A stretch of DNA of 64,000 nt from Escherichia coli (GTDB lineage: Bacteria > Pseudomonadota > Gammaproteobacteria > Enterobacterales > Enterobacteriaceae). Location of the stretch: assembly GCF_024502345.1 (NCBI RefSeq), contig NZ_JALDNN010000001.1; one strand, given 5' to 3'. The position numbers and the translations under genes are program-made. Position 1 is the stretch's first letter; every line of letters begins with the position of its first letter. A model generated the notes under the pieces. It had not been told where the DNA came from, searched no databases, and saw only the letters and a program-made list of their open reading frames with translations. Shown piece by piece: positions 112 through 37,541 of the stretch.

Positions 112-600
112 TTAGCGAACTACCGCGTTGTCAATTTTCTCTTCCGCCTTCCAGACGCGGTACTTCACATCTACATTGTCTGGCGTATACACCACGATCG
201 GCAGCTTGCTGTTGTAACGCAGCATTCCAGCATCGCCCAGATACGCGGTGACAAATTTCTTCTCTTTCTTGCCATCCGGGCAGGCCATCATCGTGGAAAC
301 CGGCGAGCTAACTTTATCAAAGACATAATAATCATAGCCCCAGCCTTCCAGCGTTTTGCTTTCCAGCTTCCCGCCGAGACGATGCAAATTGCAATCGACT
401 TCCAGCGTCTGACCGATTAACAGTTCTACTTTCAGGGTAGATTCATCTTCTTGCGGGGTTAACTGAATCACCTGACGCTTCATGCCTTTTTCAGCTTGTG
501 GATAAGGCGCGATTTTTTCCAGTGGCTGGACGCTCTCTGCCGCCCAGGCGGAAGTGGTGGCGAAAGCGGCAAACAATACTGCAGGTAGAATGGTCTTCAT
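112..600 (-). CDS. eco: ecotin, periplasmic serine protease inhibitor
   Basis: 162 aa ORF with signal peptide [20 protein letters not shown]; sequence recognised as ecotin. Confidence 0.95.
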
Positions 601-877
601 TTTTTGCTTTCCTTCTTCATTTATAGGTTTGCACCGATGATGTCGCTGAAGGTTAACATATTCATCAGATTTATTAATTTGCTTTATGAATAACTTAAAG
701 AATATTCAGACAATTTTACCTGCTCTTTTAGTGTTAAATTCTGATGAGAGAGCAAAACAGCAGAAATATCTCTGGTGAATTAATCGCTATATAAATATAT
801 TTATAACCATTTGAAATGTGAGCAAAAGCCCGTTTTTGCCACGCTTCCCGCCACTCTTTTGATCCTGCTACAGGTTT

Positions 878-893
878 TACCTCGATCGGGGTA
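878..893. promoter_or_regulatory. Candidate NarP/NarL 7-2-7 heptamer pair in napF control region
   Basis: tacctcg-at-cggggta inverted heptamers (TACYYMT type) about 115 bp upstream of napF start; matches recalled architecture of the napF promoter. Confidence 0.5.
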
Positions 894-1006
894 TGCATCT
901 TTGACACATCCTTTAATATCTTAGCGGCTATAAAAATGGCTTATTAATTATGCGGTTTATTTGGTCGCTCTCAATTTTCAGAGCGCGTTAATGATGGAAG
1001 GTCAAT

Positions 1007-1501
1007 GTGAAGATTGATGCATCCCGTCGGGGCATACTCACTGGTCGCTGGCGCAAAGCCAGTAACGGTATCCGTCCGCCCTGGTCCGGTGATGAATCTC
1101 ATTTTCTGACCCATTGCACCCGCTGCGACGCCTGTATTAATGCTTGTGAAAACAACATTCTGCAACGCGGCGCGGGCGGCTATCCGAGCGTTAATTTCAA
1201 AAATAACGAGTGCAGCTTCTGTTACGCCTGCGCGCAGGCTTGCCCCGAATCGCTATTTTCTCCGCGCCACACCAGGGCCTGGGATTTGCAGTTCACCATT
1301 GGGGACGCGTGCCTGGCGTATCAGTCAGTTGAATGCCGCCGCTGTCAGGATAGCTGTGAGCCAATGGCAATTATCTTTCGCCCGACGCTCTCCGGGATCT
1401 ACCAGCCGCAACTTAATAGCCAACTTTGCAACGGATGTGGAGCATGTGCAGCCAGCTGTCCGGTATCAGCCATAACTGCGGAGTATCTCCATGCACACTA
1501 A
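1007..1501 (+). CDS. napF: ferredoxin-type protein NapF (4Fe-4S clusters)
   Basis: 164 aa, multiple CxxCxxCxxxCP motifs; first gene of nap operon. Confidence 0.95.
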   Translation: MKIDASRRGILTGRWRKASNGIRPPWSGDESHFLTHCTRCDACINACENNILQRGAGGYPSVNFKNNECSFCYACAQACPESLFSPRHTRAWDLQFTIGDACLAYQSVECRRCQDSCEPMAIIFRPTLSGIYQPQLNSQLCNGCGACAASCPVSAITAEYLHAH

Positions 1502-1754
1502 CTGGCAAGTTTGCAGCCTGGTCGTGCAGGCCAAAAGCGAACGAATTTCAGACATCAGCACCCAACTGAACGCCTTTCCCGGCTGTGAAGTTGCTGTCAG
1601 CGACGCGCCGAGCGGTCAGTTGATTGTGGTGGTGGAAGCAGAAGACAGCGAAACGCTGATCCAAACCATTGAGTCAGTACGCAACGTAGAGGGCGTGCTG
1701 GCGGTGTCGCTGGTTTATCACCAGCAGGAAGAGCAAGGTGAGGAAACACCATGA
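1491..1754 (+). CDS. napD: NapA chaperone NapD
   Basis: 87 aa ORF overlapping napF stop and napA start; recognised sequence. Confidence 0.9.
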
Positions 1755-4237
1755 AACTCAGTCGTCGTAGCTTTATGAAAGCTAACGCCGTTGCGGCCGC
1801 TGCGGCGGCTGCCGGTCTCAGCGTGCCGGGCGTTGCCCGCGCCGTTGTTGGTCAGCAGGAAGCCATCAAATGGGATAAAGCGCCGTGCCGTTTCTGCGGT
1901 ACTGGTTGCGGCGTTCTGGTCGGAACGCAGCAGGGGCGTGTGGTGGCCTGTCAGGGCGACCCGGACGCACCGGTTAACCGTGGCCTGAACTGCATTAAGG
2001 GCTATTTCCTGCCCAAGATCATGTACGGTAAAGACCGTTTGACGCAGCCGCTGCTGCGTATGAAAAACGGTAAATATGACAAAGAAGGCGAATTTACCCC
2101 AATCACCTGGGATCAGGCCTTCGATGTGATGGAAGAGAAATTCAAAACCGCCCTGAAAGAAAAAGGGCCGGAATCGATCGGTATGTTCGGTTCTGGTCAG
2201 TGGACTATCTGGGAAGGTTATGCCGCGTCCAAGCTGTTTAAAGCGGGCTTCCGTTCGAACAACATCGACCCGAACGCGCGTCACTGTATGGCGTCGGCAG
2301 TAGTTGGCTTTATGCGTACCTTTGGTATGGATGAGCCGATGGGCTGCTATGACGACATCGAGCAGGCTGACGCGTTTGTGCTGTGGGGCGCAAACATGGC
2401 GGAGATGCACCCGATCCTCTGGTCACGCATCACTAACCGTCGTCTCTCTAACCAGGACGTCACCGTGGCGGTGCTTTCAACCTACCAGCATCGTAGCTTC
2501 GAGCTGGCGGATAACGGCATCATCTTTACGCCACAGTCTGACCTGGTGATCCTGAACTACATCGCCAACTATATCATTCAAAACAATGCGATAAATCAGG
2601 ACTTCTTCAGCAAACACGTTAACCTGCGCAAAGGGGCGACGGACATCGGCTACGGTTTACGTCCGACCCATCCGCTGGAAAAAGCAGCGAAGAATCCGGG
2701 TTCTGACGCCTCCGAACCGATGAGCTTTGAAGATTACAAAGCCTTCGTTGCTGAGTATACGCTGGAAAAAACCGCTGAAATGACCGGCGTGCCGAAAGAC
2801 CAGTTAGAACAACTGGCGCAGCTGTATGCCGATCCGAACAAGAAAGTCATATCCTACTGGACGATGGGCTTCAACCAGCATACCCGTGGTGTGTGGGCCA
2901 ACAACCTGGTCTACAACCTGCACCTGCTGACCGGCAAAATTTCCCAGCCGGGTTGCGGTCCGTTCTCCCTGACCGGGCAGCCTTCCGCGTGTGGTACTGC
3001 GCGTGAAGTGGGCACCTTTGCTCACCGTCTGCCTGCGGACATGGTGGTAACTAACGAGAAACATCGTGATATCTGCGAGAAGAAGTGGAATATCCCGAGC
3101 GGCACCATTCCGGCGAAAATCGGTCTGCATGCGGTAGCACAAGACCGTGCGCTGAAAGACGGCAAGCTGAATGTTTACTGGACCATGTGTACCAACAACA
3201 TGCAGGCCGGGCCGAACATCAATGAAGAGCGTATGCCGGGCTGGCGCGATCCGCGCAACTTCATCATCGTCTCCGATCCGTATCCGACAGTCAGTGCGCT
3301 GGCCGCCGACTTGATCCTGCCGACCGCAATGTGGGTAGAGAAAGAGGGCGCTTACGGTAACGCCGAACGCCGTACTCAGTTCTGGCGTCAGCAGGTACAG
3401 GCGCCAGGCGAAGCGAAATCGGATCTCTGGCAGTTAGTCCAGTTCTCCCGCCGCTTCAAAACTGAAGAAGTATGGCCGGAAGAGCTGCTGGCGAAGAAAC
3501 CGGAACTGCGTGGCAAAACGCTGTACGAAGTTCTGTATGCCACCCCCGAAGTGAGCAAATTCCCGGTATCCGAACTGGCGGAAGATCAGCTGAACGATGA
3601 ATCCCGCGAGCTGGGCTTCTATCTGCAAAAAGGGCTGTTCGAAGAGTACGCATGGTTTGGTCGCGGTCACGGTCACGATCTCGCGCCGTTCGATGACTAC
3701 CACAAAGCGCGCGGTCTGCGCTGGCCGGTGGTGAACGGTAAAGAAACGCAGTGGCGTTACAGCGAAGGTAACGACCCGTACGTGAAAGCGGGCGAAGGCT
3801 ATAAGTTCTACGGTAAACCGGATGGTAAAGCGGTGATCTTCGCGCTGCCGTTCGAACCGGCGGCGGAAGCACCGGATGAAGAGTACGACCTGTGGCTCTC
3901 TACCGGACGCGTCCTGGAGCACTGGCACACCGGCAGTATGACTCGCCGTGTGCCGGAACTGCACCGTGCCTTCCCGGAAGCGGTCCTGTTTATTCACCCG
4001 CTGGATGCGAAAGCGCGCGATCTGCGCCGTGGCGACAAAGTGAAAGTGGTTTCTCGCCGTGGCGAAGTGATCTCGATTGTCGAAACGCGCGGTCGTAACC
4101 GTCCGCCGCAGGGCCTGGTGTACATGCCGTTCTTCGACGCCGCACAGCTGGTTAACAAACTAACGCTGGACGCGACCGATCCGCTCTCGAAAGAGACGGA
4201 CTTCAAGAAGTGCGCGGTCAAACTGGAGAAGGTGTAA
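1751..4237 (+). CDS. napA: periplasmic nitrate reductase catalytic subunit NapA (Tat signal, molybdopterin)
   Basis: 828 aa; N-terminal twin-arginine motif SRRSFMKA; CxxCxxxC cluster; recognised. Confidence 0.97.
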
Positions 4238-4243
4238 GCCATT

Positions 4244-4939
4244 ATGTCCCGGTCAGCGAAACCTCAAAATGGTCGCCGCCGCTTTCTGCGCGATGTCGTT
4301 CGCACAGCAGGCGGGCTGGCTGCCGTGGGTGTGGCGCTGGGGTTACAACAGCAAACCGCACGCGCATCTGGCGTGCGGTTGCGCCCGCCCGGAGCCATAA
4401 ACGAGAACGCCTTTGCCAGTGCCTGTGTGCGTTGCGGTCAGTGTGTTCAGGCTTGCCCTTACGACACCTTAAAACTGGCGACGCTGGCCTCTGGCCTGTC
4501 GGCGGGCACGCCATATTTTGTCGCACGGGATATTCCTTGCGAAATGTGTGAGGACATTCCGTGCGCCAAAGTGTGCCCGAGCGGTGCGCTGGATCGTGAG
4601 ATTGAATCGATCGACGACGCGCGGATGGGGCTGGCGGTACTGGTGGACCAGGAAAACTGTCTCAACTTTCAGGGGCTGCGCTGCGATGTTTGTTATCGCG
4701 AATGCCCGAAAATTGATGAGGCCATCACCCTGGAGCTGGAGCGCAACACGCGTACCGGTAAGCACGCCCGCTTTCTGCCGACGGTTCACAGCGACGCCTG
4801 TACCGGTTGCGGTAAGTGCGAAAAAGTATGCGTGCTGGAACAACCGGCAATCAAGGTGTTACCGCTGTCACTGGCGAAAGGGGAGTTAGGTCACCATTAC
4901 CGCTTCGGCTGGCTGGAGGGGAACAATGGCAAATCGTAA
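4244..4939 (+). CDS. napG: ferredoxin-type protein NapG
   Basis: 231 aa, Tat-like signal (RRRFLR), four Cys clusters. Confidence 0.95.
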
Positions 4940-5789
4940 ACGTGACGCCGGGCGCGAGGCGCTGGAGAAAAAAGGCTGGTGGCGCAGTCACCGTTGGCTG
5001 GTGTTACGTCGCCTTTGTCAGTTCTTCGTGCTGGGGATGTTTTTGAGCGGTCCGTGGTTTGGTGTGTGGATCTTGCACGGCAACTACAGCAGTAGCCTGT
5101 TATTCGACACCGTTCCGCTGACCGATCCGCTGATGACGCTGCAAAGTCTTGCCAGTGGTCATCTGCCTGCCACGGTGGCGTTGACCGGTGCGGTGATTAT
5201 CACCGTGCTCTACGCCCTGGCAGGAAAGCGATTATTTTGCAGCTGGGTCTGCCCGCTGAACCCGATTACCGACTTAGCGAACTGGTTACGCAGGCGCTTT
5301 GACCTCAATCAGTCTGCGACGATCCCTCGCCACATTCGCTACGTGCTGTTGGTGGTCATTCTGGTGGGATCTGCCTTAACTGGCACGCTCATCTGGGAAT
5401 GGATCAACCCCGTTTCCCTGATGGGGCGTAGCCTGGTAATGGGCTTCGGCAGCGGCGCGCTGCTTATTCTCGCGCTGTTTTTATTTGATCTACTGGTCGT
5501 TGAACACGGCTGGTGCGGGCACATTTGTCCGGTTGGCGCGCTGTATGGCGTGCTGGGTAGCAAAGGTGTGATTACCGTTGCGGCCAGCGATCGGCAGAAA
5601 TGTAACCGCTGTATGGATTGTTTTCATGTTTGCCCGGAACCGCATGTGCTACGTGCCCCGGTGCTGGATGAACAAAGCCCGGTGCAGGTCACCAGCCGCG
5701 ATTGCATGACGTGCGGTCGCTGCGTGGATGTCTGTTCTGAGGATGTATTTACAATAACTACACGATGGAGTTCGGGAGCGAAATCATGA
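4926..5789 (+). CDS. napH: membrane ferredoxin-type protein NapH
   Basis: 287 aa, TM helices plus C-terminal Cys clusters. Confidence 0.95.
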
Positions 5790-6229
5790 AAAGCCATGAC
5801 CTGAAGAAAGCGCTGTGTCAATGGACGGCGATGCTGGCCCTGGTGGTAAGCGGCGCGGTTTGGGCGGCTAATGGCGTCGATTTTAGCCAGTCGCCGGAAG
5901 TATCCGGGACGCAGGAAGGGGCCATTCGGATGCCAAAAGAGCAGGATCGGATGCCGCTGAACTATGTGAATCAGCCGCCAATGATCCCGCATAGCGTTGA
6001 AGGTTATCAGGTAACGACCAATACCAACCGCTGCTTGCAGTGCCACGGTGTCGAAAGCTATCGCACCACTGGCGCGCCGCGTATCAGTCCTACTCACTTT
6101 ATGGACAGCGACGGCAAAGTGGGCGCGGAAGTGGCTCCGCGTCGTTATTTCTGTCTGCAATGTCACGTACCGCAGGCCGATACCGCGCCAATCGTGGGGA
6201 ATACCTTTACCCCATCAAATACCGAATGA
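5786..6229 (+). CDS. napB: dihaem cytochrome c NapB, with C-terminus altered by a novel joint
   Basis: [13 protein letters not shown]...; two CxxCH haem motifs; the last residues (..TPSNTE) differ from the recalled K-12 C-terminus (..TPSKGYGK). Confidence 0.9.
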   Translation: MKSHDLKKALCQWTAMLALVVSGAVWAANGVDFSQSPEVSGTQEGAIRMPKEQDRMPLNYVNQPPMIPHSVEGYQVTTNTNRCLQCHGVESYRTTGAPRISPTHFMDSDGKVGAEVAPRRYFCLQCHVPQADTAPIVGNTFTPSNTE

Positions 6230-6671
6230 AGTGGACTATCGAAAATTGCAGGAACTGTTCACGCGGATCGCCATCGATAAACATATTCAGCAAAAGCTTG
6301 AACATCCTCACCACCAGCTGGTGGCTACCTACCAGTCATTAAACCGCAAGTATTCAGAATTGCTGGAGGAATACAAAATCCTTCGGCGCTGCTTCTCTGT
6401 TTCCGCTCTTGTTCCTTATACCGACGTATGGACACATAAGCCTGTTCAGTTTTATCCAGGCAAACATCCATGCGAAAAACCTGCCGACATGCTGAAACAG
6501 ATCATTAGCGCCAGCAGCAGACCGGGGGATATCGTTGCCGATTTCTTTATGGGCTCTGGTTCAACTGTGAAAGCTGCAATAGAACTTGGCCGTCGGGCGA
6601 TCGGCGTAGAACTGGAGGCAGACAGGTTTATACAGACCACCGAAGAGGTGGAAAAACTGAAAAAATCATAA
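6220..6671 (+). pseudogene. 5'-truncated N6-adenine/N4-cytosine DNA methyltransferase (C-terminal fragment only)
   Basis: Translation contains HPCEKP then DIVADFFMGSGSTVKAAIELGRRAIGVE (SAM-binding FxGxG block of beta-class MTases); no start codon and no N-terminal DPPY catalytic motif; reading frame begins at the napB joint. Confidence 0.7.
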
Positions 6672-9135: not shown

Positions 9136-9514
9136 ATTAAGATGTTGACGGTTTTCGTGGATAAATTTGTGAATTTTTACTATGAAGGAAATACGACTCT
9201 TCCTTGAGTCAAAATCCCTGACAACTTAGGGTGATAGATAAAGGTCTTACGCAGCATGACATAATTTTCGATTTAAGCTATTTAAATTAATTTTTAAGAT
9301 CAAAACCCACTGAGATTTACTTACAAAACTAAACCTTGCTATGTCTGGTTAATCATGCGTTAATGAATGTCTGGTTTGTAACGAATTTATCTGAAGCAGT
9401 CGCTGTAATAATTTTATTCCTTGTTCCTGTTGAGATTTCCTTGTTAGCTTTTCTCTCTGATAAATTTTTTTCGGACCATTCTGCCCAAGGGCTTACTCAA
9501 TAAAGGTAATGTTT

Positions 9515-9727
9515 ATGTCTAATAAAATGACTGGTTTAGTTAAATGGTTTAATCCTGAAAAAGGTTTTGGTTTTATCACTCCAAAAGATGGTAGTAAAGA
9601 TGTGTTTGTTCACTTCTCTGCTATCCAGAGTAATGATTTCAAGACGTTGAATGAGAATCAGGAAGTTGAATTTAGTGTTGAACAGGGACCTAAAGGCCCC
9701 ACGGCAGTTAATGTCGTGGCTGTATAA
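9515..9727 (+). CDS. cold-shock protein (CspA family), prophage-borne
   Basis: 70 aa [23 protein letters not shown]...; long AT-rich 5' leader typical of csp genes. Confidence 0.9.
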
Positions 9728-9931
9728 GGTAACTGTTATTACTAATAATATTCACTTCAGATGTCCGTGTTGCCACGGATCTCAGTACCGAACGTCAAAC
9801 TTTGATGTTACTGAAAAAAATCCTTTCGGAGCAAAATGTATTTTTTGCAAATCAACAATGATTACATTTGATAATATTGCACTGTACATTCGTTCTGGTC
9901 AGTCTTCGTTAGAATTCAGAAAATAAATTTC

Positions 9932-24592: not shown

Positions 24593-24741
24593 CAACCTGG
24601 CAGGAAATGGCCGCTGACGTCACCTTCTATTTCCGCTGGTCTGAGGACAGGGCGTGGGGAATGACCCGCGCCCGGCTGAAATGGTGGGTGGCGCAGGCAT
24701 CCCGGATAAACAAGCTTAGGAAACCTGAAGACGATGAGTAA
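24314..24741 (+). CDS. tail assembly chaperone, -1 frameshifted long form
   Basis: Zero-frame ORF to 24577 joined to -1 frame extension ..TWQEMAADVTFYFRWSEDRAWGMTRARLKWWVAQASRINKLRKPEDDE. Confidence 0.55.
24571..24577 (+). promoter_or_regulatory. Programmed -1 ribosomal frameshift slippery site T TTT TTG
   Basis: ttttttg with TTT TTG in the zero frame; the -1 frame stays open to 24741, overlapping the tape-measure start. Confidence 0.65.
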
Positions 24742-26662
24742 TTCTTTTGATTTTGAGCTGGTGGCCAGCGACCAGGTTAGCGAGGCTATAGACCGCATTA
24801 ATGAGGCTGTCCGTGACCTGGAGCCGAAGCTAGATAAAACTAAAGAAGGGCTCAAGTTAGGCGGTCAGGAAACAGCCGACGGACTGAGCGGTTTTATTTC
24901 TCGCCTCGAGAATATGTCGAAGAGCGCGCGGGATAACGTGCAGTTTATTGGCGACATGGTTCCCCCACTGAAAATGGTGGGGGAGCTCACGGGGAAGATG
25001 GGGGCGCTGGGGTTAGCCGGTGCTGCCGGCTACGGACTGAAACAGGTCGCTTATGGATTTCGGGAGGCATCCCGTCAGGCCTATAATCTTGATGTCTCGG
25101 CAAAAAATGCGGGAATGCGCGTTGACGATTTTACCCGACTTTCCGGGGCAATGCGTATTCTTGGGGCAGACAGCGAGAGCGCTAATGCATCAATAGAAGG
25201 TATTTTCAAAGCATTCAATGAGGCTGCCAGTGGTAAAAACGAGGGGGTTATGGCAGCGATGGCGCAAATTGGTGCTCAAATCCAAAAAAACAGCGATGGT
25301 TCAGTAAATACCCTTAAAACACTGGAGTCTATCGCAAAAATTTTTCCAACCTTGCGACCTGAACAGCAGAAGTCCGCCGCTGATGCACTTGGGCTGACGC
25401 CCGAATTGCTGGCGCTAATGCGTGACGGTGAGCGCATGAAAAAGCTGCTGGCGAAATCGGATGAATTTGGTCTGACTGTGGATCCGGCACTAAATCAGCA
25501 ATTGAGTGAAGTGAACGGCACTATGAATGAGCTCAGCGCATCCTGGGATGGTCTGTGGCAACGTTCAAAAAACAAGGCACTTAAGACCATTCTTTCGGAT
25601 GGTTCAGTCAAAGACGGCCTTGAAGGTGTTACCGATCTGTTCACTAATGGTGATTTTACTGGGCTGTCTCATGCTCTCGGTTTTATCAACAGCAATGATG
25701 CTGAGAAACTACGGCGCATTCAGAACGATAAGGAACTTTATAACAGCTTACCCCGCAGTGAACGTGGGCAGGTTGACGCGGGTTTCATGACTGATGCTGT
25801 AAGAAAGCGGTACGATGCGAATTACCGCGCGACCGATTCTGCGATTCAATTGCAGAATGACTTATCCGCTATCAGCCAGCCACAATCCAACGTTGCACGC
25901 GGCAATGTTCCTTACGGGGAAACAAGGAATAACGCAATTGGCTTCAGAAATAATAATCCCGGTAATTTGAGGGCTGCAGCAAACGCAACGGGTAAAAATG
26001 GCGGATTTTCTACCTTTGCGAATGATGCCGACGGAAGAGCTGCAATGGCGAGACAGCTGATGTTGTATGGTGACAGGGGGAATAATACTCTGGATGGGAT
26101 TATTCATACCTATGCTCCGCAATCAGAGAATAATACTCGTGCATATATTGATTCCGTATCAAAAAGTACTGGGTTTGGAGCGCAGCAGCGTATTAATCTC
26201 CACGATCCTGATGTGTTAAAAACACTGATGGCAGCAATGATTAAACATGAAAGCGGAGCACAGCCGTATACCGAAAATGAACTGAGCGATTCTGTCCGGA
26301 CGGCCATCATTGACGATCGGTGGAAGGGTTTACGTAGCCCGGAAGTTCTGGCTCAACAGCGATATGATATTATCTCAGGTTCGCAAACTGGAAATCGTGA
26401 CTCCAGCACTCTTAGTAACCCGAGTGATGAAACTGATATTCTCTCAGGCTCGCAGAACAGAAATCGGGAATCCATCATTCTGAGTGATACGGGTAAGAAA
26501 AGTGATGAAAGTGTACTCGGCGACAATCTGGCTAAGTCTCTTAAAGAGGCAATGTCAGAACAACCACTTAAGCTCGAAATCACAATGGTTAATGATAAGG
26601 GTGAGCGAAAAACCTATAATGCGGAAAATAATGGCAGAATAACAACGGCCATGAATTACTGA
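24734..26662 (+). CDS. tail tape measure protein
   Basis: 642 aa, helical-rich, position after chaperone pair; C-terminal imperfect tandem repeat (ISGSQTGNRDSS / LSGSQNRNRESI). Confidence 0.8.
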   Translation: MSNSFDFELVASDQVSEAIDRINEAVRDLEPKLDKTKEGLKLGGQETADGLSGFISRLENMSKSARDNVQFIGDMVPPLKMVGELTGKMGALGLAGAAGYGLKQVAYGFREASRQAYNLDVSAKNAGMRVDDFTRLSGAMRILGADSESANASIEGIFKAFNEAASGKNEGVMAAMAQIGAQIQKNSDGSVNTLKTLESIAKIFPTLRPEQQKSAADALGLTPELLALMRDGERMKKLLAKSDEFGLTVDPALNQQLSEVNGTMNELSASWDGLWQRSKNKALKTILSDGSVKDGLEGVTDLFTNGDFTGLSHALGFINSNDAEKLRRIQNDKELYNSLPRSERGQVDAGFMTDAVRKRYDANYRATDSAIQLQNDLSAISQPQSNVARGNVPYGETRNNAIGFRNNNPGNLRAAANATGKNGGFSTFANDADGRAAMARQLMLYGDRGNNTLDGIIHTYAPQSENNTRAYIDSVSKSTGFGAQQRINLHDPDVLKTLMAAMIKHESGAQPYTENELSDSVRTAIIDDRWKGLRSPEVLAQQRYDIISGSQTGNRDSSTLSNPSDETDILSGSQNRNRESIILSDTGKKSDESVLGDNLAKSLKEAMSEQPLKLEITMVNDKGERKTYNAENNGRITTAMNY

Positions 26663-32240: not shown

Positions 32241-32291
32241 CTGATATTTCCCCCTCTGATTTTATCGCTTAACACTAAGTGAGGATTAACT

Positions 32292-32924
32292 ATGCTCCGA
32301 ATCGGGCAAGTCGAAGCCACTGCAACGCAGGATGGCAAATATACTGATGGAAGTGTTGCTGGTGGTATTGCCGCAACGAGGCTGCGGGCAGCAGCGTTTA
32401 ATGCCATGCAGGAAGAGTTAGCGCATATCGTAGAGTCAGCAGGATTGGCGCTCGACATTAACGATATGACTCAGGTTTTAAAAGCCATTCAAAAACTCAC
32501 ACTGAGCCGTGCAAACCCATTTGCCGATATCAAATCAGATGGTGCAGCGGCGATTTCTACGGCTCTCACAAACCTTGGATTGGGCGAAGCGGCGAAATGT
32601 AACGTTGGAACTAGTGCTAACCAGATCCCCGATATGTCGTTTTTCACATATTCAAACGGTGTTTATAGATTCCCCAATGGGCTGATTCTGCAAATATTTA
32701 ACAGGGTAACATCAACTACAGATACAACTACAGCATTTACTTTCCCTACGGTTTTTCCTGATTCATGCCACGGCATTTTTTCGACATATAACTCGGGGAC
32801 AGCAGGTAACTACTACACGTTCAATAATGTGACTCCTGCGGGTGCAAATATGCAGGCGTTTCTCGGGTCGCCCACACCTACCAAGGGCGGCAGTACTGCA
32901 ACAATAGTTGCGTTCGGGAGGTAA
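32292..32924 (+). CDS. side tail fibre protein (e14 StfP-like)
   Basis: 210 aa, Gly/Thr/Ser-rich C-terminus, followed by tail fibre assembly gene. Confidence 0.7.
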   Translation: MLRIGQVEATATQDGKYTDGSVAGGIAATRLRAAAFNAMQEELAHIVESAGLALDINDMTQVLKAIQKLTLSRANPFADIKSDGAAAISTALTNLGLGEAAKCNVGTSANQIPDMSFFTYSNGVYRFPNGLILQIFNRVTSTTDTTTAFTFPTVFPDSCHGIFSTYNSGTAGNYYTFNNVTPAGANMQAFLGSPTPTKGGSTATIVAFGR

Positions 32925-32926
32925 TA

Positions 32927-33352
32927 ATGCAATACGCCTATAGCCAGTCGCAGAATCTGTTTTATGTGCGTGAGTGGGAGCGTGACTACGGGGATTCATG
33001 GCCTCAAGATTGCCTTGATGTATCCGACGAGCAATTCAGAGAGTTCAGTGTTGAGCAAGCACCTGGAAAGGTTCGCTCACCAGGTATTGATGGTCTTCCA
33101 TGCTGGATTGACGTGCCACCGCCAACGCAAGACGAATTAATCGCTATAGCTGCTGCAGAAAAACAGCGACTGATTGCTGCTGCTAACGAATTTATGAATG
33201 GGAAGCAATGGCCCGGTAAGGCGGCAATTGGTCGGCTGAAAGGCGATGAGTTGTCGCAGTACAACTTGTGGCTGGATTATCTCGACGCCCTAGAAGCGGT
33301 CGACACCTCCAGCGCACCAGATATCAACTGGCCTATTCAGCCGGAAGTGTAG
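32927..33352 (+). CDS. tail fibre assembly protein (TfaP-like)
   Basis: 141 aa; strong SD gggagg; position. Confidence 0.7.
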   Translation: MQYAYSQSQNLFYVREWERDYGDSWPQDCLDVSDEQFREFSVEQAPGKVRSPGIDGLPCWIDVPPPTQDELIAIAAAEKQRLIAAANEFMNGKQWPGKAAIGRLKGDELSQYNLWLDYLDALEAVDTSSAPDINWPIQPEV

Positions 33353-33492
33353 GCCATTCCGGGTCTGCTGTATCAACGTGCATCAGCAGCACCCGGTATT
33401 TCTTTCACTCGCTTAGAGCGGTGGTTTCTTCCTCCGTCGCAATACCTGCATCAACAGCATCCTGACGCCGGTCAATCTCTGAGTCTGCCTGC

Positions 33493-33518
33493 GCTCGTAA
33501 ACCAACCTTTTTTATAAC
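33493..33518. promoter_or_regulatory. Candidate invertase crossover site (gix/hix-like)
   Basis: gctcgtaaacc-aa-ccttttttataa resembles the 26-bp gix (ttcctgtaaacc-ga-ggttttggataa) and hix sites; ~60 bp upstream of pin, as in Mu gixR/gin. Confidence 0.4.
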
Positions 33519-33576
33519 CATCAAAAATCTGGTGATGCTTCGCCGTTTCTCCTGTTTTCATAACAGGAGAAATCCC

Positions 33577-34131
33577 ATGATTTACGGTTATGCCCGAGTA
33601 TCAACAAACCACCAGGACACTGAATTGCAACTAACGGCGCTCAAGTCAGCGGGTTGTGAGAAAATTTTTGAAGAGCATGCCAGCGGGAGGAAATCGAATC
33701 GGCCGGTTCTAAAACGGCTCATCGCCACTATGCAGCCGGGGGATGAACTGGTGGTATGGAAACTAGATCGCCTCGGGCGAAGCATGCGAAATTTAGTGCT
33801 GCTGGTCGACGAACTCCGACAGCGGGGCATTCACTTTAAGAGCCTCACGGACAGCATTGATACATCAAGTCCAATGGGGCGTTTTATATTTCACATCATG
33901 TCAGCGCTGGCGGAAATGGAAAGAGAGTTAATCGTCGAACGCACCCGGGCTGGATTAGCGGCTGCGCGGGAAAAAGGGAGAATAGGTGGCAGACGTCCAA
34001 AATTAACTCCCGAGCAATGGGCACAGGCTGGGAGATTAATATTAAACGGCGTGGATAGAAAACAAGTGGCAATAATTTATGATGTCGCTGTATGCACGCT
34101 TTATAAAAAATTTCCGGTGGGGCAGGCTTAA
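33577..34131 (+). CDS. pin: serine-recombinase DNA invertase (Pin/Gin/Hin family)
   Basis: 184 aa MIYGYARVSTNHQD... with catalytic Ser near N-terminus and C-terminal HTH. Confidence 0.9.
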   Translation: MIYGYARVSTNHQDTELQLTALKSAGCEKIFEEHASGRKSNRPVLKRLIATMQPGDELVVWKLDRLGRSMRNLVLLVDELRQRGIHFKSLTDSIDTSSPMGRFIFHIMSALAEMERELIVERTRAGLAAAREKGRIGGRRPKLTPEQWAQAGRLILNGVDRKQVAIIYDVAVCTLYKKFPVGQA

Positions 34132-34132
34132 A

Positions 34133-34167
34133 TGATAAAAGGGCAGCTGCTAGATAGGCTGCCCGTC
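34133..34167 (-). terminator. hairpin downstream of the dinI-like gene
   Basis: gggcagc-tgctagatagg-ctgccc with A-run on the plus strand (T-run on minus). Confidence 0.5.
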
Positions 34168-34536: not shown

Positions 34537-34776
34537 ATGCCTCGTCAACCGGATATTCGTGCTGCTTTTATTGCGGCCATACAGCAAAACCCGAAGGGCT
34601 ATCTCTGCCTGCATACAGACAGATTCATCGCTGAACTGCAGGAGAGGCGCTGGCACTTCAGCCAGGCGGATGCAAATTCATGGATCGAACGATACCAGCC
34701 AGACTTCGCCGATAAGACGACAAACGGAAGTGAGAACCGATACTGGATCCTGCGTAACATGGGGAGGGTTTTCTAA
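34537..34776 (+). CDS. hypothetical protein, first gene of SOS-box-associated pair
   Basis: 79 aa; SD gagggtg; stop overlaps next start (TAATG). Confidence 0.65.
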   Translation: MPRQPDIRAAFIAAIQQNPKGYLCLHTDRFIAELQERRWHFSQADANSWIERYQPDFADKTTNGSENRYWILRNMGRVF

Positions 34777-35096
34777 TGGGGTTTCCATCGCCAGCCATGG
34801 ATTACCAGGAGCAGCGCATGACAATAGATGTTATCTGTGGTGTAGATAACAACTGCCGGGTTATTGAAACTTCATGCGGCTGGGCCGTTATAAACGTCAG
34901 TCTTAAGCCAGAAGGAGGGGATACGTTGCTGGTTAGCATGGACGGGAGAAACCAGTTCGTGAAGCTAATGGGCCACGCGCTGATCACTCAAGATGGTGAA
35001 GCGATAGAAGGGGAAGCTTTGAATGACGTAACGGTACACGGCGTTCTAACACATACACTTAACCAAGTTAAGGACGATAAATCGCCTGTAATGTAG
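34776..35096 (+). CDS. hypothetical protein, second gene of pair
   Basis: 106 aa; translationally coupled; followed by bidirectional terminator. Confidence 0.6.
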   Translation: MGFPSPAMDYQEQRMTIDVICGVDNNCRVIETSCGWAVINVSLKPEGGDTLLVSMDGRNQFVKLMGHALITQDGEAIEGEALNDVTVHGVLTHTLNQVKDDKSPVM

Positions 35097-35164
35097 CGTG
35101 TAAATGTCGGGGGTTATTCCCCCATTTTTCCCCAATGATTCCCCGTACAAATTTCAAACATAAA

Positions 35165-35190
35165 AAAACCAGCCGTAAGAGGCTGGTTTT
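35165..35190. terminator. bidirectional rho-independent terminator (proL and the 34776 gene)
   Basis: aaaaaaa-ccagcc-gtaaga-ggctgg-tttt. Confidence 0.8.
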
Positions 35191-35201
35191 CAATGTGTTT
35201 T

Positions 35202-35278
35202 TGGTCGGCACGAGAGGATTTGAACCTCCGACCCCCGACACCCCATGACGGTGCGCTACCAGGCTGCGCTACGTGCCG
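35202..35278 (-). tRNA. proL: tRNA-Pro
   Basis: 77 nt; reverse complement reads CGGCACGTAGCGCAGCCTGGTAGCGCACCGTCATGGGGTGTCGGGGGTCGGAGGTTCAAATCCTCTCGTGCCGACCA. Confidence 0.95.
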
Positions 35279-35352
35279 ACTCGTGGCTGCTAATACTACC
35301 GTTTTCCACACCGATTGCAAGTAAGATATTTCGCTAACTGATTTATAATTAA

Positions 35353-37113
35353 TCAGTTAGCGATAAAACGCTTCTCGTCTGTCAGTACTTGCAATAACAA
35401 ACTTAACTGTGGTTTTTCATCTTTCACTCTTTCACCACGTAAGTTGTAAGTGCGGTATTTACCGTTATTGTTCAGCACCAGCGTCTTTTTCGGAGTGGTA
35501 ATTGCCAGCGTATCGTTATCCGCTGCGGTAACCCAGTAATGACGGCGTTGAGGGTTGAACAAATCCTGACCTTGCGAATATTCGCTGGCAGGTGTGCTGA
35601 CATGTAGCAGGCGTTGCATCAGCGTCGTCATCAGATCGGTATGATCAGTCAGAGCATTAATACGCTGCGCCGGCGTGCCTGGCCAGTGAATCACTAATGG
35701 CACCTGCAGATGACCGTGGGACCAGTCAAAGGTTTCTTCCTCTTCGCTCAGTGGAATACCCCGAGCGGCAGTGATAATCACCACCGTATTGTCCAGTTTG
35801 CCAGAATCACGCAGTGCATTGAGCACACGGTTGATCTGGTCATCGACATTGCCTGCCGCCCGGCTATATTTCCGTGCAAATGCCTGCTGATTGCTGTCGT
35901 CAATGTTAGTACCATTGAAAGAGACCCACGAGAACCAGCGGTTATCTTCTTGTGCGTAGCGTCCCAGCCAGTTGATCCACTGCGTGGCGGTCTGCTCGTC
36001 GGATTGGGTGCGTACGCTCGGCATCGAGAAATCTGACAACAATGCCTGGCGATACAGCGGGCTGGTAAAGCCATCTGATGAGAATAACCCCAGCTGATAG
36101 CCTTGCTGATTAAGCGCAGTAATTAATGCCGCAGGCGTACGGGTCGACAGAATGCCGTCCATATAGCTCGGCGAGATGCCATAGAACAGGCCAAAGATGC
36201 CGTTGTCTGTAGTGTTGCCGGAGCTCATATGGCGCGTGAACGAAATATTTTGCTCAGCAAAACCTGCCAGCGCAGGCATCTGCTTCTCGAAGCGTGAGTA
36301 GTTCAGGCCATCGACAGTAATCAACAGCACATTCTGCCCGGTGCCCATATCGCGATAGCGCAGTTCGCTTAACGGATACTGAACGGAAACGGCGTCTGGA
36401 TTACCTTGCTCAATAAGACGGCGTTGATACTCCTGCGCATCAAGCAGGCCATGCTTCTCAAGAAAACGTCGCGCCGTCATCGGGTACGAAAGCGGCAGGT
36501 TAGCGCGCTGCATGGTGATAGGGCGATAGAAGTTGGCATCGGCCCAGATATACACCACATGCGAGGCGATAAAGGCGATAAATAAGAATGCGGCCAGCGG
36601 GCGCGCGAAGCGTCGACGACGCGTCAGGCTGCGCAGCTTTTGCCAGCTCCACGTCGCAAACACCAGTTCAAGCAATAAAATAACCGGCACGCTGATGAAC
36701 ATCAGCTGCCAGTCGCGCGCCATCTCATTTTCGTCTGGGTTGATAACCAGTTGCCAGACGATGGGATTAAGATGGAGATGGAAACGAGTAAAGACTTCGC
36801 TATCGATCAGTAATAGCGTCATTCCCGCCGTTGCCAGAATGACGGACAAAAACCTCATCAGCCTCTGGGAGCCGACGATAAAGGTCAGCGGGAAGAGGAT
36901 CAGCAAGTAGGTGGCGAACACCAGGAAGCTGAAATGGCCGATAATGCTTACGTAGGAATAAATGCGACCAGCAAGCGTGGTCGGCCAGTCGGCGATAAAC
37001 AGGTAACGGCTGCCAATGACGAGCGAAAGCAGAATATTGAACAGTGCAAACCAGTGCCCCCAACTGACCATCTGGGAGACTTTTTCACGGTAGCGCTGAC
37101 GATGAGTTACCAT
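35353..37113 (-). CDS. yejM: inner-membrane cardiolipin transport / LPS regulator protein YejM (PbgA)
   Basis: 586 aa, N-terminal TM helices plus sulfatase-like periplasmic domain; recognised. Confidence 0.95.
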   Translation of the reverse strand: MVTHRQRYREKVSQMVSWGHWFALFNILLSLVIGSRYLFIADWPTTLAGRIYSYVSIIGHFSFLVFATYLLILFPLTFIVGSQRLMRFLSVILATAGMTLLLIDSEVFTRFHLHLNPIVWQLVINPDENEMARDWQLMFISVPVILLLELVFATWSWQKLRSLTRRRRFARPLAAFLFIAFIASHVVYIWADANFYRPITMQRANLPLSYPMTARRFLEKHGLLDAQEYQRRLIEQGNPDAVSVQYPLSELRYRDMGTGQNVLLITVDGLNYSRFEKQMPALAGFAEQNISFTRHMSSGNTTDNGIFGLFYGISPSYMDGILSTRTPAALITALNQQGYQLGLFSSDGFTSPLYRQALLSDFSMPSVRTQSDEQTATQWINWLGRYAQEDNRWFSWVSFNGTNIDDSNQQAFARKYSRAAGNVDDQINRVLNALRDSGKLDNTVVIITAARGIPLSEEEETFDWSHGHLQVPLVIHWPGTPAQRINALTDHTDLMTTLMQRLLHVSTPASEYSQGQDLFNPQRRHYWVTAADNDTLAITTPKKTLVLNNNGKYRTYNLRGERVKDEKPQLSLLLQVLTDEKRFIAN

Positions 37114-37132
37114 AACCTGTTATCTGTTTCCC

Positions 37133-37360
37133 TTAGTGCGCTTTGTCTTCGTTGATAGAGGACTGTAATGCGCGGGCAAAAGAGTTGGCAATTGCCTGGC
37201 GTTGGGCCGGGGCAATGCTGGTGTTGATAAGGTTAGTGACCATGTTGCCTAACACCATCAGGGAAAGGTCGGTCGGAGCCTTATGTTTTTCCAGTACGTT
37301 GAGCAGCTCTGCGAGCAATTGTTCAACCTGTTCATCACTGTAGCGGGAAATTTGTGGCAT
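37133..37360 (-). CDS. yejL: UPF0352 protein YejL
   Basis: 75 aa [27 protein letters not shown]... Confidence 0.9.
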
Positions 37361-37541
37361 AAATCGAAATCAGTTAGTTGATGAAAGGGCAACATATTAC
37401 CGTAGCAACGGTTTTTTTTCTGCTTTTTTATGCGTTAAATCATTCTCGTTACGCTGCCTTCTGTAAAATGACCGCCATCTTTTATTGCGTCGCTTAACCG
37501 GCGGTGGTTGAATACCGCCCGGTCTTAAAGGAGAGTTTATC

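Follow-up and report, generated by a model that had tools for sequence, protein, structure and literature searches.

Probable reduction of a Pin/Gin-type invertible tail-fibre segment to one coding cassette in an Escherichia coli prophage

Invertible tail-fibre segments are a textbook case of programmed host-range switching. In this study we analysed a tail-fibre locus with an adjoining DNA invertase gene in a prophage of Escherichia coli. The stretch investigated, 64,000 nucleotides (nt) of contig NZ_JALDNN010000001.1 (assembly GCF_024502345.1), is referred to as the window, and related loci are denoted by L numbers. The locus begins with a side tail-fibre gene on the plus strand (32292-32924, 210 amino acids (aa); Pfam PF21882 Gp53-like_C, E 5.8e-08), in which a constant part, Sc (32292-32574), is followed by an exchangeable tip, Sv (32577-32924), with the Gp53-like_C domain. 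It is followed on the same strand by the tail-fibre assembly (chaperone) gene tfa (32927-33352, 141 aa; Pfam Caudo_TAP, E 2.2e-28) and by a Pin/Gin-family serine DNA invertase gene (33577-34131, 184 aa; Pfam Resolvase, E 3.8e-49, and HTH_7). The original prediction for this DNA had announced a complete invertase of this family ~225 base pairs (bp) after the assembly gene, and both points held: the gap is 224 bp, and the protein could be aligned end to end and free of gaps over 182 residues with the Mu Gin structures 3UJ3/4M6F (E 5e-80). Its catalytic Ser9 is kept, in YARVST. The catalytic domain, this serine and the C-terminal helix-turn-helix are those of the small serine recombinases of Gin/Pin/Cin/Hin systems. 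A 100% identical invertase protein was found in 91 blocks, mostly adjoining segments with two cassettes.

Two 26-bp crossover sites of the form 12-2-12 were found at this locus. The left site, CTCTCACAAACC-TT-GGATTGGGCGAA at 32563-32588 (core TT at 32575-32576), lies in the fibre codons T-N-L-G-L-G-E. The right site, CGCTCGTAAACC-AA-CCTTTTTTATAA at 33492-33517 (core AA at 33504-33505), is the gix-like site that had been predicted ~60 bp upstream of the invertase; in the form gctcgtaaacc-aa-ccttttttataa it spans 33493-33517 and ends 59 bp ahead of the invertase ATG. Its reverse complement reads TTATAAAAAAGG-TT-GGTTTACGAGCG, and the two sites are in inverted orientation with a matching core dinucleotide, as in Gin/Pin systems. 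The putative invertible segment between them, both cores included, measures 931 bp (32575-33505) and holds Sv, tfa and the relic of a second tfa. The site register was set by aligning the segment ends in the window with the sites of e14, L001 and L002, and scoring was done with a half-site matrix derived from sites outside the window only, those of EC958 (PMC4134206 Table 3) and e14. When 63,974 window positions were scanned the left site ranked first and the right site second. The two sites scored 19.4 and 13.9, the next best position, with one half poor, reached 11.3, and only these two positions in the window rose above background; the more than two crossover sites of a multiple-inversion system were not seen. 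The original prediction had suggested an orphaned invertase. This did not hold, because a partner crossover site is present in cis, located by alignment with two-cassette relatives and e14 at 32563-32588 in the fibre gene; an orphan invertase, with no flanking pair of sites, was not what we found.

Comparison with sites elsewhere gave a similar picture. Both scores lie inside the range of the L010 and L012 sites (13.5-23.4); these two loci encode the same invertase protein, and their segments stand in opposite orientations at one chromosomal locus with the inner half-sites swapped. Sites of EC958 such as ...CC-TC-GGTTTACGAGAA invert, as seen in PacBio reads (PMC4134206 Table 3), and the right inner half of the window, GGTTTACGAGCG, equals GGTTTACGAGAA in 10 of 12 bases. 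For e14 the repeat TTGGTTTGGGAGAAGG was experimentally shown to be an inversion site (PMC12529663). In its outer half and core the right site does not differ from the right sites of L001, L012 and HK225, and with its ...TAAACC-AA variant the window scores as high as working right sites. The sites also coincide with the limits of homology. Identity to two-cassette relatives is 99-99.8% up to window position 32589 and is then lost; homology returns at 33499 in HK225, L001, L016 and L011, and at 33504 in L018. In 10 other contexts the left site is likewise the left homology breakpoint. The unflipped junctions of the window read ...CTCACAAACC-TT-GGATTGGGCG... and ...CGCTCGTAAACC-AA-CCTTTTTTATAACC....

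Within the segment, one Sv and one tfa are present and no second tip, Sv', is left, so the segment lacks the two opposed fibre 3' ends, each with a chaperone, of a two-cassette system. On the minus strand at 33333-33503, translation and alignment to the tfa genes of L008 and L009 revealed the last 57 codons (171 nt) of an opposed tfa. This relic reads GLRAQADSEIDRRQDAVDAGIATEEETTALSE, a stop, then KKYRVLLMHVDTADPEWPTLPAE and a final stop, and aligns with the C-terminal third of the full-length opposed chaperones in L008 and L009, which have TGG (Trp) at the position of its TGA (33405-33407). The relic is joined directly to the right crossover core, tfa homology beginning ~5-10 bases from the core, and over its final 20 nt it runs tail to tail into the end of tfa, like tfaP/tfaE in e14. 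A 38-codon open reading frame (ORF) with the start MVIKKVGL (33408-33521, minus strand) begins outside the segment and reads inward; in two-cassette relatives the silent tip is annotated from the same start. Since 57 opposed tfa codons remain fused to the right site, a second fibre/chaperone set evidently once existed and was deleted up to the site. The prediction of a single gene set without opposed ORFs therefore stands for complete ORFs and fails for the tfa relic, and its idea of a collapsed switch agrees with the one remaining set, the 57 codons and the identical invertase found elsewhere beside two-cassette segments. A sub-threshold match to the Rfam family IS009 at 33364-33560 on the minus strand (46.6 bits against a gathering score of 117) was also seen. 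Stretches of L037 (4755-4953) and L038 (4345-4543) belong to the same observation. The canonical IS009 copies of K-12 sit inside the 3' ends of tfaR and tfaQ. We rejected an IS009 small RNA in the window, because the model overlaps conserved coding sequence of the tfa C-terminus and the match only reflects the relic.

The same cassette was found in other phages. Records of the exact 141-aa chaperone protein come from 73 blocks and are named as E. coli. Ten long contexts were obtained in which the stretch from 32560/70 to 33501/11 is 97.9-99.9% identical and the flanks are unrelated, with the exception of L025, where identity is only 86.8% and the alignment runs on into its invertase. They comprise P2-like tails (L021, L022, L024), a P1-like plasmid prophage (L023), lambdoid GpJ tails (L026-L028) and Mu-like baseplates (L025, L029, L030). 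At the AA core the inner sequence ...CGCTCGTAAA(CC/TG) is joined to at least 7 different outer sequences. The same relic is present in L003, L004 and L021-L031, and together with the half-site it is also found behind other fibre modules, in L031 with an invertase and in L003 and L004 without one. This spread would be explained most simply by exchange that took place at the crossover sites or a few bases from them. Pattern scans gave one match among viral contigs (L031) and none in species-representative genomes, JGI metagenomes or a second viral scan. The cassette was not found, except as fragments, in 5,426 complete E. coli genomes, nor in the plasmid collection or the phage records; complete E. 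coli genomes do hold relatives with the full segment of fibre, tfa, opposed tfa', opposed tip and invertase.

Some of the related loci differ in instructive ways. L018 (Logan SRR27201051) is the same prophage, 99.3% identical on both sides, with another tip and chaperone at 4126-4945. The stop codon of its chaperone abuts the AA core, there is no relic, an inner half-site can no longer be recognised and nothing on the right scores as a site; L018 is evidently a second, independent collapse at the same point. In the P2-like L021 (Logan ERR3328337, 3637-5535) the cassette and relic are followed by a complete second set, a 111-aa tfa and a 213-aa tip, and then by the invertase, so that three cassette boundaries follow one another. 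Were the stretch from the second to the third boundary deleted, the arrangement of the window would result. L004 (E. coli ET5, NZ_CP101014.1, 1468-3132) and L003 have no invertase; their lambdoid tail-fibre module contains a diversity-generating retroelement (Avd and reverse transcriptase) immediately ahead of the same relic and half-site. In L033 (Logan SRR10682244, 1-30) the reverse complement of window 32626-32655 is joined to ~32782 in the fibre tip, a junction that would be either an assembly artefact or a small internal inversion.

When the segment was inverted in silico, Sc continued in frame into 32 codons of the relic, and the predicted product had 127 aa and no tip. On the other side the ATG at 33521, outside the segment, then headed a 121-aa ORF consisting of MVIKKVGL and Sv, followed by tfa; no good Shine-Dalgarno sequence was seen before this ATG. 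The flipped junctions predicted for the window are CTCACAAACCTTGGTTTACGAGCGCAGG and GCTTCGCCCAATCCAACCTTTTTTATAACC, in context ...CTCACAAACC-TT-GGTTTACGAGCGCAGG... and ...GCTTCGCCCAATCC-AA-CCTTTTTTATAACC.... One flipped copy of the cassette was found in the P1-like L023, where it is reversed relative to the constant fibre part. The 486-aa S gene there runs through the site in frame into the relic, stops at its TGA and ends ...QYLHLRAQADSEIDRRQDAVDAGIATEEETTALSE. Word-index protein searches returned 7 matches for the relic peptide and 1 for Sv, from which orientation is not readable. Some short Logan contigs, 932-947 bp long and with their ends at the sites, were considered as a sign of inversion heterogeneity and rejected: they share AAACC-TT on the left and stop on the right before CC/TG or after AAC, ends that fit mixed cassette contexts.

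By its invertase and sites the locus is one of the Gin/Pin inversion systems, best described as a one-cassette variant because the two alternative gene sets are lacking. The explanation we favour, and hold to be fairly probable, is a Pin/Gin-type invertible tail-fibre segment that has been reduced to one coding cassette. In a two-cassette ancestor the second tip, together with most of the second tfa, would have been removed by a deletion with one end within a few bases of the crossover core, produced either by the invertase at a quasi-site or through short TTACG homology. Our first idea was a relic junction strictly at the core, made via a quasi-site; this is now one alternative, and a deletion by TTACG homology slightly inward of the site edge, a few bases inside it, fits equally well, because GGTTTACGAGCG matches active sites in 10 of 12 bases. 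Action of an invertase at quasi-sites is reportedly known for Cin from the papers of Iida and of Hiestand-Nauer. The resulting cassette would then have spread among unrelated phages through exchange at the sites. If the invertase is active, a flip would turn the fibre off, leaving a truncated Sc-relic protein without the receptor-binding tip and with no chaperone behind it, while the flipped tip and tfa would face the invertase behind a short start outside the segment. Because one cassette remains, a flip would no longer swap host range and would only switch the fibre on or off.

A hairpin covers the ribosome-binding site of the invertase gene (33545-33573, plus strand). The inverted repeat of 10 bp that had been predicted here is real and slightly larger, with 11 Watson-Crick pairs and a G.U pair between the arms 33546-33556 and 33562-33572 and a 5-nt loop, TTCAT. 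The Shine-Dalgarno sequence AGGAG (33565-33569) lies within the 3' arm, 7 nt ahead of the ATG. The RNA folds at -25.5 kcal/mol (z = -3.9), and none of 200 shuffles folded as well. The hairpin is kept in HK225, L031, phi80 and L002, and also in L001, L011 and L020; in phi80, whose record labels it IR3, and in L002 the outermost U-A pair is replaced by C-G, a compensatory change in both arms. In other invertase clades (e14, L009, L021) the Shine-Dalgarno sequence is likewise paired, in small hairpins of another kind. Occlusion of the ribosome-binding site looks like a general design of these invertases, and in the window the hairpin probably keeps translation of the invertase low. A second small hairpin, GGTGAT-gctt-CGCC (33530-33545), lies just ahead of the first and is conserved, with L031 altered in both arms (GGCGA...TCGCC). 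It was flagged as terminator-like because a T-rich run follows it, and transcription coming from the fibre operon may end here. A weak sigma-70-like match (TTGATA-16-AATCAT, 9/12) at 33604-33577 on the minus strand is directed into the segment.

The window is E. coli chromosome, and ~29 kilobases (kb) of phage late genes lie in it between napB and proL. Synteny with K-12 extends from napF to the end of napB (window 505-6219, 98.9%), ends at 6219, which is 16 bp before the napB stop, and picks up again at proL-yejM (35150-37489, 99.1%). The late genes include holin, lysozyme, large terminase, portal, capsid and sheath, a tape measure gene assigned from its translation (ORF 24734-26662) and, upstream of the fibre gene, the Mu-type baseplate genes Baseplate_J and Gp48/YmfQ (Pfam). 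After the baseplate the order is fibre, chaperone, invertase, DinI, two small ORFs and tRNA-Pro(GGG) at 35202-35278. The genes napC, ccmA-H, narP and yejO, which K-12 has between napB and proL, are missing from the window, and the ORF over the left junction of napB and prophage (6048-6671) represents the 3' portion of a phage gene for a DNA methylase. On account of these missing genes and the methylase fragment, the prophage is evidently truncated on the left and defective, having lost its early region along with ~12 kb of the host chromosome. Between lysis and packaging genes, at 9509-9926, the prophage carries genes for a cold-shock-domain protein and a YmcF-like protein, as does the Qin region of K-12. 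The two ORFs between the DinI gene and tRNA-Pro (34537-35096; 79 and 106 aa) gave no Pfam match; the second has 129 aa in L011 and L013, with a weak Peptidase_S24 match, and the 106-aa form may be a shortened UmuD/HumD-like gene.

Several observations weigh against a switch that still works, and many of them favour the most serious rival explanation, a frozen relic without meaningful inversion, in which the sites would be scars and the invertase would be kept by drift or by action in trans on other prophages. Between napB and proL in the window no integrase, repressor/immunity or replication genes were seen, and in a truncated prophage there is no obvious selection for a working switch. The cassette stands unflipped in 9 contexts and flipped in 1 where an invertase accompanies it. 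Exact look-ups of seven predicted flipped proteins (127 and 121 aa for the window, 569 for the P1-like, 191 and 121 for the lambdoid, 128 for the L025-type and 308 aa for the P2-like context) found none on record, negatives that are weak because the unflipped 210-aa fibre of the window itself is also not on record. The cassette and relic persist in phages without an invertase, not only in L003 and L004 but also in the P2-like L022 and L024, where none lies within ~4 kb on either side. Many cassette copies (L026, L031) carry ...TAAATG-AA, below the site threshold, although the window copy does not. In the left inner half an A replaces a conserved T (GGATT, not GGTTT). For the Fis-bound recombinational enhancer that Gin/Pin systems carry in the 5' part of the invertase gene the picture is mixed: a degenerate Fis motif, and pairs of it ~48 bp apart, gave no strict match in the first 300 nt of the gene, relatives have one conserved strict match at nt 71, and over the first 190 nt the gene is 98.9% identical to those of two-cassette relatives. 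There is also precedent for orphan or decayed Pin loci: pinL of phi80 adjoins pseudogene fragments, one stf/tfa set adjoins each of pinR and pinQ, and PinQ of Qin acts in trans on e14 (PMC12529663). Yet the window has the better ...TAAACC-AA variant, equal in score to working right sites, its cores match in inverted orientation, its invertase is 100% identical to copies beside segments that occur in both orientations, and L023 provides a flipped copy of the cassette. We regard a frozen relic as possible, though rather doubtful, and we put the chance of appreciable inversion in this strain at about one half.

The other alternatives carry less weight. It could be argued that the sites are accidental and that a non-invertible fibre module merely stands beside an unrelated recombinase. 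The inner halves are indeed unlike each other (GGATTGGGCGAA and GGTTTACGAGCG) and 2-4 bases off the family consensus, and no long inverted repeat was detected. However, the sites take ranks 1 and 2 among 63,974 positions, the right outer half and core are identical to those of L001, L012 and HK225, and homology ends at the two cores in more than 10 independent contexts, which already contradicts a chance resemblance; we find it hardly credible. By analogy with e14, the one-cassette segment might instead be a maintained, horizontally mobile on/off module which serves the defective prophage as a recombinase-controlled defence switch, the flipped state making a free 121-aa tip with its chaperone that would block the surface receptor against other phages. 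The flipped 121-aa ORF and tfa resemble StfE2, which is made by inversion of the e14 P segment and blocks T2 adsorption (PMC12529663). The ORF of MVIKKVGL and Sv created by the in-silico flip, the promoter-like match directed into the segment and the intact invertase of an otherwise defective prophage are all consistent with such a role. Against it stand the lack of a good Shine-Dalgarno sequence before the ATG, the weakness of the promoter match and the presence of the same cassette in apparently ordinary phages, where this function would be needless, and we consider a domesticated defence switch quite improbable.

Returning to the one-cassette invertible segment, the collapse of a switch as such is not surprising, because decayed or orphan Pin loci are known (phi80 pinL, pinR, pinQ). 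To these the present analysis adds the partner site and the relic, locates the breakpoints exactly at the cores, and documents how widely the 0.93-kb cassette has spread, with one copy flipped. The locus represents a decayed form that recurs elsewhere, in which one working cassette and a stump are still flanked by plausible sites and an intact invertase. Its 0.93-kb unit appears to have moved nearly unchanged among P1-, P2-, Mu- and lambda-type tails and would illustrate cleanly, in nature, how cassettes are exchanged at crossover sites. Should the segment still flip, the fibre would be turned on or off, or a free receptor-binding tip released, and no choice between two host ranges would be offered; since the early genes are lost, any switching would now matter only to the host or to a helper phage. 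This would link it to the report of Pin-driven inversion in cryptic prophages that blocks phage adsorption (PMC12529663). A segment that no longer flips would add another example to the decaying prophage switches. Genome annotation should treat the 210-aa fibre, both sites and the relic as one unit.

Among known systems the e14 P segment with PinE in K-12 has the same order, YmfQ(gp48)-stf-tfa-...-pin, its left site also lies in fibre codons, (E/T)NLGLGE, with the same TT core, and both prophages are defective. The fibre is 33% and the chaperone 50% identical, values at which the label StfP/TfaP-like, given in the original prediction, is loosely right, and the invertase DNA is ~67% identical over 458 nt. 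The e14 segment has 1797 bp, a 16-21 bp inverted repeat, and opposed stfP/tfaP and tfaE/stfE, whereas the window segment has 931 bp, unlike inner half-sites and one set with a relic. The integration sites differ as well, icd for e14 and proL for the window. In the G segment of Mu with Gin and the C segment of P1 with Cin, the site lies between the constant and variable fibre parts and the invertase adjoins, as in the window. Both Mu and P1 have two complete Sv-U sets and swap host range, whereas the second state of the window would be a truncated fibre.

Close relatives are the two-cassette segments with the identical invertase, namely L010-L017, E. coli KMi029 (L001) and SZQ1 (L020). L001 and L012 have the right outer half-site of the window, TTATAAAAAAGG, whereas the outer half of L010 is of phi80 type; Sc of the window recurs in L001 and L016 (99.8%). 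These relatives keep tfa' and Sv', their segments measure ~1.9 kb and occur in both orientations; the window does not keep the second set. Like the window, phi80 pinL, Rac pinR and Qin pinQ have an invertase beside a single fibre/chaperone set or pseudogene fragments. The hairpin of phi80 is the same as in the window, but only fragments lie upstream of pinL, and pinR and pinQ converge on tfa with no annotated flanking pair of sites, whereas the window has both sites and a complete cassette. In the Min system of p15B, fibre 3' cassettes bounded by crossover sites are reportedly shuffled as modules, as described by Sandmeier, Iida and Arber in 1992. The window, with two sites in 64 kb, is not such a multi-site system; it is L021, with three cassette boundaries in a row, that resembles Min.

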